From the NCBI GenBank assembly GCA_036759025.1, contig DAIOVL010000001.1:123539-187538 (forward strand): a stretch of DNA of 64,000 bases. Direction: 5' to 3'. Position numbers and translations under genes: made by a program. This DNA comes from Bacteroidales bacterium (GTDB lineage Bacteria > Bacteroidota > Bacteroidia > Bacteroidales > VadinHA17). Below the pieces are notes generated by a model. That model ran no database searches, had not been told where the DNA came from, and worked only from the letters and a program-made list of their open reading frames with translations. Below are positions 9,872 through 16,425 of this stretch, piece after piece (within the stretch, counting starts at the first letter, position 1; the number at the start of each line of letters is the position of its first letter).

Positions 9872-12800
9872 ATGAACAGACACCTCATATCAATCTCACT
9901 TTTTATACTTACCGGTGTGTCAATGTCAGCCCAGACATTTGACTGGCCTATGTGGCGCTGCGATTATCACCGTTCAGCTTCCACTCCCGAACAGCTGTCC
10001 GGCAATCTTTATCTTCAGTGGCAGGCCATCTTCTCACCACGGGAACCTGTATGGGACGATCCACTGAATCAGGATCTGATGCATTTTGACCGGATCTTTG
10101 AACCGGTAGTTGCGGAGAACAAGTTATTCCTGGGTTTTAATGACAAGGATAAAGTTGTAGCATATGACCTGCTTACCGGCGACGAGATCTGGCAGTACTA
10201 TGCTGATGGTCCGGTAAGGCTTCCCATGGCATACAACAAGGGTATATTATATTTTACGGCTGATGACGGATTTTGTTACGCTCTCGACGCTAAATCTGGC
10301 AGAAGAGTATGGAGATCCTCCCTTGCGCCTGCCCCCGACAGACTGCTGGGAAACAAACGGCTTATCTCAATGTGGCCGGCCCGAGGAGGCATAGTCATTA
10401 AGGACGATGTCGTCTACACGGCAGCAAGTATATTTCCCCTTATGGGGACATATATCTATGCCCTGAATGCGGCAGATGGTTCCGTGGTCTGGAAAAATGA
10501 AGCCACAGGCAGCAATTATATCCTTCAGCCCCACAAATCACCAGCCTTCGCCGATGTTGCTCCCCAGGGCCCCTTTGCAATAACGGGCAATACTCTTCTG
10601 GTAGCAGGAGGACGTTCTGTTCCAGCTGCCTTCGACCTTGCAACAGGTGAGGAACTTTATTATCAGCTTGCCGCAAGTGGTAAAACAGGAGGAGCATTTA
10701 CGACCTGCAACGATAAAGTTTTCTTTAACCACCACCGCGATAGAGTTGTCAGTATGTATGGTTCAGGCACCGGCGACAGGATCAAATCTTCAGTCGGGGG
10801 CTACCCTGTAATTGATGATGATACAGTATACTTCTCAGGTAAAGGTATCACTGCAGCGATCATTCAGCCCGATTCAACCCTTAAATCAATATGGTCTGTA
10901 AACGTACGGGCTGCAAACGACCTGATAAAGGCAGGTAATACATTATTTGCGGCCGACAGTACCGGAATAAGCGCCGTTATACTCAGACCCGGATCAGTAC
11001 CGGAACTTACATGGAGATACGATACTGACAGGCCAGTTGAGAGGCTCGTGGCAGCAAACGGCAAGCTCGTGGCCGTCTCCTCCGATGGCTCCATAATGGT
11101 CTTCGGCGACAGCCGGGTTGATGAAGCTGACATTCATAGAAAAGATGTTATCAGATTAAAAGGCAACTCAAGGGCCGCCAAAAAGATCCTGAGGACGGCT
11201 GGCACCACGGAAGGTTATGCTGTGGTTTTCGGTTCAGATGTAAAATTTCTCGAAGGTCTTGTTGCAAACAGCCTCCTTTCAATTGTGGCATATGTCGGTG
11301 ATCCTGAAGAATTAACTTCACTCCGCAGATATTTTGATGAGAGGGACGTAGAAGCACAGCGCCTCAGCTTCCTGCCTTTTTACCGTGATAACATAGTGCT
11401 TCCGAAATATTTTTCATCCCTCACGGTCATTGCTGAGGATTATGGCTTTGATGATGATATGCTGAAAATGCTGTATGAGTCTGCCAGGCCATACGGAGGA
11501 CTGATAATAACTTCAGAAAGAGGAAGGGTCGCCGGCGTTTTTAAACGACTGGAACTTTCAGGATCGCAGTCTTTGCATGAGAATGGATTTCTGAAGGTTA
11601 CAAGACCGGGGGCACTAGAGGGTGCTGCAAGCTGGACACATAATTACGGAAATATTGAAAATACTGTAAAATCCGACGACAGGCTGGTCAAAGCTCCACT
11701 TGGCATTCTCTGGTTCGGGGGAAATTCAAACATGGATGTTCTTCCGCGTCATGGTCATGGTCCCGGAGAACAGGTCATAGACGGCCGTCTCATAATTGAA
11801 GGTGTTAACAGTATCAGTGCCAGGGATGTTTATACCGGAAGGGTTCTCTGGAAACATGAATCAGAAAGACTGATGGACGACTCCTGGATGGTTTTTTATG
11901 ATGAAACATATGACGAGGAAAACCCTCTCGATCCGAAATACAATCAGGTACATCTGCCGGGTGCCAACGCCCGTGGTACAAATTTCATAGCCACAAGCGA
12001 ATACGTATACCTCATCGAAGGGAATAAATGTATCCTTCTTGATTTAGTGACAGGAGAAAAAGTCAGGGAATTCTCCACGGGTGACGATGATTCAAAGGAA
12101 CTGGGTTACATAGGTGTGTGGGAAGACCTGCTGATCCTGGGAAATAATTTTACAGAATATTCCGGACTCGAGAACGATTCAATCCGGATAAAGAATCCTA
12201 AATTCACTGATTATGACCTTACTGCAAGCCGTGAACTGATAATTATGAACCGCTTCTCAGGAGAAAAACTCTGGAGTTTGGAATCAAATTTCGGTTTTAT
12301 CCATAATTCGGTTATAGCCGGTGACGGAATTCTGTTCTGCCTCGACAAGCTTCCCCAGTACCTCGAAACGAAACTCAGAAGAAGGGGAGAACCGATCCCT
12401 GAGGGATCACGTCTTTTATATGTAGACATACACACAGGCAGGATCCTTTATGAACAGACTGTAGATGTGTTTGGTACCTGGCTGGGTTATTCAGCTGAAC
12501 ACAGACTACTTCTTCAGGCTACAAGACCTTCGCGTGATATGCTGAACGGAGAGGAGGGAAACAGGATGATAGCCTATAATGTTGATTCAAAAAAGATAAT
12601 ATGGGACAGGGCTGTCAGATATACCAATCCTCCCATTATCCATAACGACAGGATATATACAAACGGAGAAGCATTCTCTCTTCTCACAGGCGATCAGATA
12701 CTTGAAAAGGATCCCCTGACTGGTGAAGAGCTGAAATGGACTTTCAAACGTGAATATGGCTGTGGAATTGTTGCAGCCAGTGAACACCTGCTTACCTTCC

Positions 12801-13564
12801 GGTCAGCATCAGCCGGTTTCATGAACCTCGAGACCTTCGAAGGTACCGCAAGCCTCGGCGGATGGAAGCCGGGATGTTCAACAAACCTGATAGCCGCTGA
12901 CGGGGTACTCAATTCACCTGATTATACACGTACATGCCAGTGCCCGTATCAGAATCAGACGTCACTTGCGTTGATCCACATGCCATGGATGAGTTACTGG
13001 ACAAACAGCAACTATCGCTGGAACGGCAAAAGAATAAAACAGCTGGGGCTGAATCTGAATGCACCCGGAGACCGCAGAGCTGACAACGATGTACTGTGGT
13101 TTGAATATCCCTTTGTGTCAGGAATGAATCCTGAAATAAAGGTATCCATTGACACAAATGAATATTTCACAGTCAGGAAAGAACCTTATACAATAAACTC
13201 ACGGTCCACTCCATGGATAAGCTCAAGTGCCGTCGGAGGCATCACAACCCTCGAAATAACCCTTTCGGAAGAAGAAGATATTACAGATGCCGTTTATTCC
13301 GTGAACCTCTATTTCTCCGAACTTCAGGATATGAAAGAGGGTGAGAGACTTTGTAATGTGGCCATCCAGAACACCAGGGTTCTGGATAATTTTGATATAG
13401 TGAAGGAAGCTGGTGGCTGCAATACAGAAGTGGTCAGATCATTTAAAGGAATAAGAGCCGGCAAAACACTAAGAATTGAACTTACTCCCCTTAAAGGTAA
13501 TACTCTTATTTCAGGAGTGGAAATTATTGAAGAAACACTTGCAGAAACAAGTTCGTTCAGATGA
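9872..13564 (+). CDS. Secreted giant PQQ-like (BamB-type) beta-propeller repeat protein with a C-terminal malectin-like domain
   Basis: Signal peptide, then many repeats of the type VVAYDLLTGDEIW / CYALDAKSGRRVW / IYALNAADGSVVW / ISARDVYTGRVLW. The C-terminus (VYSVNLYFSE...NVAIQN...LDNFDIVKEAGG...ISGVEII) has the malectin carbohydrate-binding pattern. ATG at 9872 (GTG at 9869 is also possible). Confidence 0.8.
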   Translation: MNRHLISISLFILTGVSMSAQTFDWPMWRCDYHRSASTPEQLSGNLYLQWQAIFSPREPVWDDPLNQDLMHFDRIFEPVVAENKLFLGFNDKDKVVAYDLLTGDEIWQYYADGPVRLPMAYNKGILYFTADDGFCYALDAKSGRRVWRSSLAPAPDRLLGNKRLISMWPARGGIVIKDDVVYTAASIFPLMGTYIYALNAADGSVVWKNEATGSNYILQPHKSPAFADVAPQGPFAITGNTLLVAGGRSVPAAFDLATGEELYYQLAASGKTGGAFTTCNDKVFFNHHRDRVVSMYGSGTGDRIKSSVGGYPVIDDDTVYFSGKGITAAIIQPDSTLKSIWSVNVRAANDLIKAGNTLFAADSTGISAVILRPGSVPELTWRYDTDRPVERLVAANGKLVAVSSDGSIMVFGDSRVDEADIHRKDVIRLKGNSRAAKKILRTAGTTEGYAVVFGSDVKFLEGLVANSLLSIVAYVGDPEELTSLRRYFDERDVEAQRLSFLPFYRDNIVLPKYFSSLTVIAEDYGFDDDMLKMLYESARPYGGLIITSERGRVAGVFKRLELSGSQSLHENGFLKVTRPGALEGAASWTHNYGNIENTVKSDDRLVKAPLGILWFGGNSNMDVLPRHGHGPGEQVIDGRLIIEGVNSISARDVYTGRVLWKHESERLMDDSWMVFYDETYDEENPLDPKYNQVHLPGANARGTNFIATSEYVYLIEGNKCILLDLVTGEKVREFSTGDDDSKELGYIGVWEDLLILGNNFTEYSGLENDSIRIKNPKFTDYDLTASRELIIMNRFSGEKLWSLESNFGFIHNSVIAGDGILFCLDKLPQYLETKLRRRGEPIPEGSRLLYVDIHTGRILYEQTVDVFGTWLGYSAEHRLLLQATRPSRDMLNGEEGNRMIAYNVDSKKIIWDRAVRYTNPPIIHNDRIYTNGEAFSLLTGDQILEKDPLTGEELKWTFKREYGCGIVAASEHLLTFRSASAGFMNLETFEGTASLGGWKPGCSTNLIAADGVLNSPDYTRTCQCPYQNQTSLALIHMPWMSYWTNSNYRWNGKRIKQLGLNLNAPGDRRADNDVLWFEYPFVSGMNPEIKVSIDTNEYFTVRKEPYTINSRSTPWISSSAVGGITTLEITLSEEEDITDAVYSVNLYFSELQDMKEGERLCNVAIQNTRVLDNFDIVKEAGGCNTEVVRSFKGIRAGKTLRIELTPLKGNTLISGVEIIEETLAETSSFR

Positions 13565-15739: not shown

Positions 15740-15774
15740 AAGCTCCGCAAATACAGAAATATTCCTGATTTAAT

Positions 15775-16425
15775 ATGTTGGAAATAAGAAATATAACAAA
15801 AAAATACACGAAGGGGGAAGATATCTTTATTGCTATTGAAGATGTAAGCTGCGTTCTCGGCAAAGGCGATTTTCTGTCGGTGACAGGGCCTAGCGGTTCG
15901 GGTAAGTCGACCCTTCTTAACATCATTGGAGGACTCATCCGTCCCGATGCCGGTACAGTGATGTTTGAGGGAGGGAATGTTTATCAGGGTTCTGAAAAGC
16001 AACTCGCACATTACAGAAAGGAGAATATAGGGTTCGTTTTTCAACAGTTTCACCTGTTGCCCTACCTGACACTATTTCAGAATATTAAACTCGGTTGTCA
16101 CAATCCCTCACAATGCCTCAGAATAGAAGCACTCCTTGAAAAGTGTCTTCTCTCCTCACTGAAAAACAAATTTCCATCTGAACTGAGTGTCGGCGAAAGA
16201 CAAAGAACTGCCTTCGTCAGAGCAATTATTTCAGAACCGGTTCTCCTTCTTGCTGATGAACCTACTGGAAATCTTGATCCGGATAACAGCAACGTTCTGA
16301 TGTCTCTGATTCAGGAATTCAACAGCAGCGGAGGAAGTGTAATCGTTGCATCCCATGATCTGCGCATTGCAGAGCTGGCTGACAGACATCTCCGGCTTCA
16401 ATCAGGAAGGGTTGTAATCCCCTGA
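15775..16425 (+). CDS. ABC transporter ATP-binding protein (MacB/LolD-like)
   Basis: Walker A GPSGSGKST, signature LSVGERQR, Walker B LLLADEPTGNLD. Confidence 0.9.
   Translation: MLEIRNITKKYTKGEDIFIAIEDVSCVLGKGDFLSVTGPSGSGKSTLLNIIGGLIRPDAGTVMFEGGNVYQGSEKQLAHYRKENIGFVFQQFHLLPYLTLFQNIKLGCHNPSQCLRIEALLEKCLLSSLKNKFPSELSVGERQRTAFVRAIISEPVLLLADEPTGNLDPDNSNVLMSLIQEFNSSGGSVIVASHDLRIAELADRHLRLQSGRVVIP

Follow-up and report, generated by a model that had tools for sequence, protein, structure and literature searches.

The window considered here is the whole 64,000-nucleotide stretch at positions 123,539 to 187,538 of contig DAIOVL010000001.1, from a Bacteroidales bacterium (assembly GCA_036759025.1). 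It contains a cassette of five co-oriented genes (Table 1), which encode a giant exported protein with two β-propellers, an exported protein of 262 amino acids (aa), a small 74-aa membrane protein, and the permease and the ATPase of an ATP-binding cassette (ABC) transporter. The junctions between the genes, read from the sequence, are an ATGA overlap (13561–13564), a 2-nt gap (AG), a second ATGA overlap (14573–14576) and a 35-nt gap, as had been given in a preliminary description of this DNA made from the sequence alone. That description also placed a TonB-dependent receptor gene divergently upstream of the cassette, and the Plug domain found in its product confirms the assignment. The 83 nt between the receptor and the giant gave generic sigma-70-like matches alone, in a scan that does not cover Bacteroidota promoter types. 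The parts of the cassette very probably form one functional unit.

Table 1. Features of the cassette and its upstream neighbor, in window coordinates.
Feature	Position	Strand	Basis
Giant exported protein gene, 1230 aa	9872–13564	+	Open reading frame (ORF)
4-Cys module of the giant: C964 (YGCG), C1002 (PGCS), C1022-Q-C1024 (PDYTRTCQCPYQNQTS)	12755–12946	+	Alignment of giants
Malectin domain of the giant	13286–13513	+	Pfam PF11721
262-aa exported partner protein gene	13561–14349	+	ORF
74-aa tail-anchored membrane protein gene	14352–14576	+	ORF
FtsX/MacB-type (type VII ABC) permease gene, 388 aa	14573–15739	+	Pfam FtsX, hydropathy
ABC ATPase gene, 216 aa, LolD/FtsE/MacB clade	15775–16425	+	ABC_tran, NCBIfam
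TonB-dependent receptor gene, 702 aa	7680–9788	-	Plug domain, 50.8 bits
Divergent intergenic region between receptor and giant, 83 nt, presumed promoter region	9789–9871		Sequence

The identical order of the five genes is found in 12 Bacteroidales loci, namely the window, six further metagenomic contigs and five of the 24 genomes that were sampled from its genus. The 262-aa protein and the conserved module of the giant are present in the same six of 41 related genomes, in an all-or-none manner. The five genes are real and conserved, and genomes gain or lose them together. Among 400 Bacteroidota genomes drawn evenly, none apart from the window's own contained the 262-aa protein, which indicates a sparse and scattered distribution of the cassette in this phylum.

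Beyond the Bacteroidota, 33 loci in Planctomycetota, Verrucomicrobiota and Sumerlaeota were retrieved with one distant homolog of the 262-aa partner protein. Among 81 Planctomycetota genomes the partner occurs in 16, the FtsX family with the CxC motif described below in 16, giants in 14 and all three in 13, and about 62 genomes have none of them. The 13/3/1/64 table of partner versus giant gives a Fisher p = 2e-11, a figure that is inflated by kinship among the genomes. Each genome that has the machine encodes between 1 and 14 giants, with up to 8–14 paralogs per Planctomycetota genome accompanied by one partner/FtsX set. In the complete Planctomycete genome G517 the eight giants are full-length paralogs, each with a DWPxWR start and a C-terminal 4-Cys module; a malectin-like tail is present in some and absent in others. 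A single machine alongside many clients is consistent with a system for maturation or handling. The dedicated five-gene envelope unit that had been proposed for the window is thus upheld by the synteny, by the all-or-none presence and by the three-way co-occurrence in Planctomycetota. The linkage of transporter and giant, for which a neighborhood check in related and more distant genomes had been suggested, extends to Verrucomicrobiales, where giants often adjoin the module.

The giant consists of a Sec signal peptide, an N-terminal PQQ_2/BamB-type propeller, a methyltransferase-like linker, a second propeller with the 4-Cys module and a C-terminal malectin domain. The Pfam model PQQ_2 matches with 97 bits, above its cut-off, and the malectin domain (residues 1139–1214), for which the cut-off is 23 bits, reaches 40.8 bits when the full-length protein is searched and 45.5 bits when the segment is searched by itself. 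The second propeller lies within residues 580–1110, as judged from Foldseek comparison of an AlphaFold2 (AF2) model of residues 580–1230 with a predicted local distance difference test (pLDDT) score of 78. Both propeller regions and the malectin domain had been recognized in the preliminary description. No match to Por_Secre_tail, the Pfam model for a type IX secretion sorting signal, was found in the giant.

The whole giant is 62–85% identical within the genus and 27–29% identical to its Verrucomicrobiota orthologs. Its best conserved part is a 240-aa stretch around the four cysteines, with 78–96% identity in the genus and 40–48% identity to the giants of Pirellulaceae. C964, R977, C1002, C1022 and C1024 are invariant in the alignment of giants, and the CxC pair lies within the pattern PDYTRTCxCxYQxQTS. 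No Pfam or NCBIfam model matches this region. At precisely the two Cys loops the AF2 model has a pLDDT under 50, and the neighboring blades are confidently predicted. Such a collapse of confidence in the most conserved module would be expected if this site required a ligand or a partner. The malectin part, in turn, is missing in many orthologous giants, some of which stop right after the CxC pair.

The best match in the PDB for both propellers is the tetrathionate hydrolase of Acidithiobacillus ferrooxidans (PDB codes 6L8A and 7CQY); the N-terminal propeller matches it in sequence (E = 1.9e-12) and the C-terminal one in fold (Foldseek, E = 3e-14). BamB and the pyrroloquinoline quinone (PQQ) dehydrogenases score nearly as high. 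Like the propellers of the giant, tetrathionate hydrolase and the BamB/PQQ_2 proteins have an eight-bladed, cofactor-free propeller; the identity to the giant is 12–13% and the target-normalized template modelling score 0.52–0.58, in a comparison that covered fold and sequence similarity; the catalytic Asp of the Acidithiobacillus enzyme is D325. Unlike them, the giant has two propellers, the methyltransferase-like linker, the 4-Cys module and the malectin domain. A PQQ-dependent dehydrogenase was considered and rejected, since the TIGR03075 score of 36.5 bits lies well short of the cut-off of 480 and the PF01011 match covers only positions 57–173 of 595. Judged from its sequence, the giant is classified as a PQQ_2/BamB-type propeller protein and not as a quinoprotein.

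The linker between the propellers, at residues ~445–560 (window 11200–11560), resembles a degenerate class I methyltransferase domain, and a similar domain is found at the N-terminus of a Verrucomicrobial paralog (L036:17161–20292). It would face the periplasm, where S-adenosylmethionine is not expected, and is therefore probably a structural or binding module.

The 262-aa protein has no match in Pfam, NCBIfam or the PDB sequences, and the same searches with the 74-aa protein gave nothing usable. The preliminary description had called both unknown and had found no nameable family for the larger one, and this holds; their description as two separate proteins does not. A word-indexed search of a 5.8-billion-protein collection returned 658 homologs of the 262-aa protein, all unnamed, and a full HMMER scan gave 2,338 representative clusters. 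The distant homologs, of 300–550 aa, contain a signal peptide, an invariant Cys, the conserved domain, a low-complexity linker, a transmembrane (TM) helix and a basic tail. The C-terminal TM anchor and basic tail are fused to the domain in 118 of 137 representative homologs with a C[STA]C..K motif, where the flexible linker to the anchor has a median length of ~105 residues, and the short forms without an anchor are the Bacteroidales-like ones. The 74-aa ORF directly follows that of the 262-aa protein and encodes the same TM helix and basic tail, so the pair is read as one split protein consisting of a thioredoxin-fold domain and a membrane anchor.

Hydropathy places the single TM helix of the 74-aa protein at residues ~43–66 (14478–14549), ahead of the basic tail, in agreement with the single-pass topology first suggested for it. 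The protein is 44–84% identical across the 12 loci, and in front of the helix it has acquired an invariant RPLPKWL.DQ motif (RPLPKWLTDQ..GL in the window, 14391–14432), which may re-dock the soluble half. The conservation of both small ORFs, on which the preliminary description had made its proposal depend, is therefore established.

An AF2 model of the 262-aa protein, built from a 39-sequence alignment, has a pLDDT of 86 and a predicted template modelling score (pTM) of 0.82. The Foldseek comparison that had been recommended for this protein returned calsequestrin and the a-b domains of protein disulfide isomerase (PDI) (E = 8e-5 to 1e-4, probability 0.99–1.0), together with ERp57 and ERp44. 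The model thus predicts two tandem thioredoxin-fold domains without a CxxC motif: the fold of the thioredoxin superfamily is present, and the CxxC at the start of helix 1 is absent. The invariant residues of the protein include C19, which is the first residue after the signal peptide, C222-S-C224 and K227. Although the predicted fold is shared with PDI, DsbC and calsequestrin at a Foldseek probability of ~1.0, the identity is 9–14%, the cysteines are at the mature N-terminus and in the C-terminal CSC..K motif, and the homologs are mostly membrane-tethered.

The similarity to PDI might indicate a dedicated disulfide oxidoreductase or isomerase, in which a PDI- or DsbC-like partner folds the giants through a redox-active CxC and the motor holds or releases the client, or resets the partner. 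The best structural matches of the partner (PDI a-b, ERp57 and ERp44) are in line with this function, as are the clients, which are very large, Sec-exported and equipped with four invariant cysteines. A CxC pair can be redox-active, a parallel being the CPC motif of Mia40. However, a CxxC at the expected place is absent from both thioredoxin-fold domains, and the invariant cysteines are located in terminal extensions. The cassette offers no electron route of the DsbB or DsbD kind, disulfide exchange does not call for an ABC motor with an invariant CxC of its own, and only four cysteines in ~1,200 residues of the giant are available for pairing. This function is considered unlikely.

The permease contains an FtsX domain (PF02687, residues 265–378, 56 bits against a cut-off of 25.5), and MacB_PCD is matched only with E = 0.046. 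From hydropathy, TM1 comprises residues 15–40, followed by a periplasmic domain of ~215 aa (residues 41–257) and three TM helices within residues 258–377. The periplasmic domain contains the pair C218-V-C220 (15224–15232) in the pattern IN.I.AL.C.C, which is invariant in Bacteroidales, Verrucomicrobiales and Pirellulaceae. In the ATPase the Walker A (GPSGSGKS), signature (LSVGE) and Walker B (LLLADEPT) motifs are all intact; ABC_tran matches with 101.8 bits, and the best NCBIfam models are LolD (180.8 bits) and FtsE (180.6 bits), both under their equivalog cut-offs. The permease and the ATPase have the defining features of the type VII ABC (MacB/FtsX) superfamily, as they had been described at the outset: an FtsX-type permease with a large periplasmic domain and its ATPase.

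The pair does not belong to any of the named systems of this superfamily. LolCDE was rejected with 31.2 bits for the lolCE model against 362 and 180.8 bits for LolD against 307.75, and FtsEX with 17.8 bits for FtsX_Gneg against 255 and 180.6 bits for FtsE against 264.85. No coiled-coil LytM partner of the EnvC or PcsB type is encoded near the cassette. MacAB-TolC was rejected as well, as no gene for a MacA/HlyD adaptor or an outer-membrane duct was found in the window flanks, in the 12 Bacteroidales loci or in the 33 Planctomycetota/Verrucomicrobiota loci.

The lack of MacA-like and TolC-like genes at the loci makes a non-efflux, mechanotransmission role, which had been assumed from the transporter type, a reasonable one. 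A role as a pump, in efflux or in the detoxification of a soft metal or a thiol-reactive compound, with the giant linked by chance, appears barely plausible. The ATPase is of the MacB/LolD clade, and Cys-rich periplasmic parts are typical of soft-metal handling. Nevertheless, neither an adaptor nor an outer-membrane duct gene was seen across more than 45 loci, no metal-sensing regulator is encoded nearby, and the strict co-occurrence with the giant would be left unexplained.

It had also been proposed that the motor acts on a glycan-binding surface complex, by releasing, inserting or remodeling it, which would amount to a Lol-like extraction or localization of the giant or of the 262-aa protein as a lipoprotein. 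The giant does contain a malectin domain, the cysteine right after the signal peptide of the 262-aa protein could be lipidated, and type VII ABC systems such as LolCDE do extract lipoproteins. Yet most partner homologs are anchored by a C-terminal TM helix, from which a Lol-type extraction cannot release them, and the residues before C19 suit signal peptidase I (small residues at -3 and -1) as well as a lipobox. The malectin part is absent from many orthologous giants, the LolCE score is 31 bits against a cut-off of 362, and the three Cys motifs would remain unaccounted for. Nothing in the present results points to a surface complex, and this role is highly improbable.

The module shares with FtsEX-EnvC-amidase, LolCDE-LolA, YbbAP-TesA and MacAB-TolC a four-TM FtsX-type permease with a large periplasmic domain between TM1 and TM2, a separate ATPase of the LolD/FtsE/MacB clade and a co-encoded partner facing the periplasm, with no sign of transmembrane transport. 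Unlike these systems, it has a tandem thioredoxin-fold partner with a C-terminal anchor, for which they contain no counterpart, and an invariant CxC in the periplasmic domain of the permease. It contains no homolog of EnvC, LolA, TesA, MacA or TolC, and the equivalog scores are far under the cut-offs.

The CSC motif of the 262-aa protein had been singled out in the preliminary description and is found there at residues 222–224. The conserved cysteine signal is, however, not confined to this protein but lies in all three periplasm-exposed parts: the CxC of the FtsX-type permease, C19 and CSC of the partner, and the four cysteines of the giant are invariant across three to four phyla. We propose, with a probability of roughly 45%, that the type VII ABC mechanotransducer matures or loads the 4-Cys site of the giant by thiol chemistry, in a manner similar in function to NosDFYL; the contact between the parts, the direction of transfer and the identity of the ligand are inferred.

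In the proposed mechanism the FtsX-type permease and its ATPase would serve as a motor without pumping a solute across the membrane. The partner would be the membrane-tethered tandem thioredoxin-fold protein, present here as a soluble or lipid-anchored 262-aa domain plus the 74-aa anchor, and the client would be the Sec-exported twin-propeller giant encoded directly upstream. The giant enters the periplasm unfolded via Sec and so cannot bring a cofactor along. ATP binding and hydrolysis would move the periplasmic domains of the FtsX-type permease, as the ATP cycle does in MacB, LolCDE and FtsEX (PMC5985334, PMC7668044, PMC12646458). This movement would either pass a thiophilic ligand (a metal ion or a sulfur species) along successive Cys sites or drive a thiol modification, and the hand-over would end at the 4-Cys site of the giant.

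NosDFY and NosL, together with the receptor NosA, perform the ATP-driven copper loading of NosZ, the propeller protein of N2O reductase. By analogy, the logic would be common to both systems: an exported propeller client, an ABC motor acting in the periplasm, a membrane-tethered Cys chaperone and a co-encoded TonB-dependent receptor in the position of NosA. The two systems share no protein family, and NosY is an ABC-2 permease, as opposed to the FtsX-type permease of the module. The NosD beta-helix, NosY and NosL find no match among the five cassette proteins in Pfam or NCBIfam. The client of the module is an eight-bladed PQQ_2/BamB-type twin propeller and not NosZ, and no copper ligands were identified in it.

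In Verrucomicrobiales the partner, FtsX and ATPase genes are followed by genes for a MoaD/ThiS-like protein, a MoeB/ThiF-like protein, a double ModA-like binding protein, a ModB-like permease and a WtpC-like ATPase, and giants often adjoin this eight-gene operon. The same eight genes occur in another order in the complete Planctomycete genome (G517:C1:3097000–3116900), and their rearrangement between two phyla argues for a function and not for inherited order. The double ModA-like protein scores 103 bits with TIGR01256 (cut-off 62.5), and its best PDB matches are all ModA. The permease of the importer scores about alike as ModB and as CysT/CysW. The partner homolog P0260 is a fusion with a ModA-like domain (SBP_bac_11), and in locus L033 the giant, the partner and a ModA-like gene stand in a row. 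In G517 only two genes belong to the ThiF family, the MoeB-like gene being one of them, and MoaE is encoded elsewhere in the genome. The adjacent or fused ModA-like protein in Verrucomicrobiota and Planctomycetota and the receptor upstream of six to seven of the 12 Bacteroidales cassettes hint at a link to solute supply.

These genes could also be taken to mean that the module traffics molybdate, tungstate or another tetrahedral oxyanion, with the partner passing the anion to or from the ModA-like protein as a step of its import, and with acquisition falling to the giant and the receptor. The operon shared by the double ModA-like protein and the ModB-/WtpC-like genes with the partner, FtsX and ATPase in Verrucomicrobiales and in the complete Planctomycete genome is in line with such a role, as are the P0260 fusion and the gene row in L033. 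However, the Bacteroidales cassette has no importer of this kind, and in the 95%-complete genome of the window no ModA-like substrate-binding protein was detected at E <= 1e-3, with MoaE and ThiF-family genes present. In addition, MoaE and the main MoeB lie elsewhere in the carrier genomes, and we know of no precedent for the thiolate handling of free molybdate. Oxyanion trafficking is thus very unlikely.

Several observations weigh against loading of the giant by the motor and the partner. Structural disulfides or a Zn site could account for the invariant cysteines in the periplasm. In the Verrucomicrobial genome G444, which encodes the partner and three giants, nothing matches the FtsX-CxC family at E <= 1e-6; the assembly may lack the gene, or the module may operate there with no motor. 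Three Planctomycetota genomes have the partner without giants. The ModBC-like import into the cytoplasm and the cytoplasmic MoaD/MoeB-like pair are unexplained by a purely periplasmic loading, and the window's own genome is without the ModA-like gene.

An unlikely further possibility is that the module is an assembly line in the periplasm, driven by ATP, that installs a novel Cys-ligated cofactor, a metal, metal-sulfur or sulfane species, into a large, as yet uncharacterized family of twin-propeller enzymes exported by Bacteroidota, Planctomycetota, Verrucomicrobiota and Sumerlaeota. Here the hand-over chaperone would be the thioredoxin-fold partner, with the CxC pair of FtsX as ATP-operated tweezers. 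If so, the module would represent a second, unrelated answer to the problem that NosDFYL solves for N2O reductase.

No published description of such a system was found in full-text literature searches, and the module is apparently undescribed, as had been supposed from the start. The type VII ABC systems are few, and each of those characterized (Lol, FtsEX, MacAB and YbbAP) has revealed a new envelope process. The partner fold and the client family of this module have not been studied, and both are widespread, with the clusters counted above for the partner and up to 14 client paralogs per Planctomycete genome. If a Cys relay loads a cofactor into the giants or modifies them, this would constitute a new maturation pathway and would provide a function for the giants that are annotated by fold only as “PQQ-like” or “BamB-family” proteins. 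The proposal can be tested with the split and fused forms of the partner, in the culturable giant carriers Maribellus comscasis and Draconibacterium, and in Planctomycetes.

The TonB-dependent receptor is a frequent, though not constant, neighbor of the cassette. It is found upstream in the window, L010, L009 (partial), L045, L046, L081 and L084, and is absent there in L007, L008, L082 and L083. Apart from the Plug domain, its NCBIfam TonB matches are weak, and it has no sequence relative among the PDB structures.

A five-gene Hdr-like operon follows the cassette in five of the 12 Bacteroidales loci (the window, at 16534–21588, and L010, L011, L045 and L083). A Laminin_G_3 or CBM9 gene intervenes in two of these loci and PurL lies beyond each time, so the adjacency is probably inherited local synteny and not a functional link. 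If it were functional, it would be compatible with the handling of sulfur species, where the propellers, in the way of tetrathionate hydrolase, act on polythionates, sulfane sulfur or related compounds, the CxC pairs carry persulfide or trisulfide, and the products feed cytoplasmic sulfur carriers. These would be the Hdr-like and DsrE/TusE neighbors in Bacteroidales, and in Planctomycetota and Verrucomicrobiota the MoaD/MoeB-like pair. The tetrathionate hydrolase match of both propellers, the MoaD/MoeB-like pair inside the module operon in two phyla and the nearly equal scores of the importer permease as ModB and CysT/CysW are consistent with this function. On the other hand, the close scores of BamB and the PQQ dehydrogenases suggest that the match may reflect the generic eight-bladed fold, the binding protein resembles ModA and not Sbp or CysP, and the 8–14 paralogs in marine Pirellulaceae are hard to square with polythionate chemistry. 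Together with the apparent inherited synteny of the Hdr genes, this makes a role in sulfur handling decidedly unlikely.

Between the cassette and the Hdr-like operon, the stretch TATTTTTG within 16495–16533, ~25 nt before the HdrC-like start, fits TAnnTTTG, which we take to be the Bacteroidota -7 promoter motif. The match suggests that transcription of the Hdr-like operon starts at a separate promoter and does not continue from the cassette. In three of the 12 loci (L046, L081 and L084) a cluster of genes for a major facilitator superfamily (MFS) protein, a ROK kinase, a SIS protein, a second MFS protein and an APH-type kinase lies downstream of the cassette, which looks like a sugar or amino-sugar salvage set.

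The flanks of the 33 loci from the other phyla contain genes for DUF1501 and PSD/PSCyt proteins and for a sulfatase, besides unrelated ones, and no phosphonate genes were seen there. A Ser/Thr kinase gene follows those of the partner and the ATPase in some Pirellulaceae, where the FtsX-CxC gene is located elsewhere. This kinase, of ~400–510 aa, directly follows the partner-ATPase pair in ten Pirellulaceae loci (among L012–L026), and in the Verrucomicrobiia locus L044 a Ser/Thr kinase comes after the ModC-like gene; the kinase may have a regulatory part in the module.

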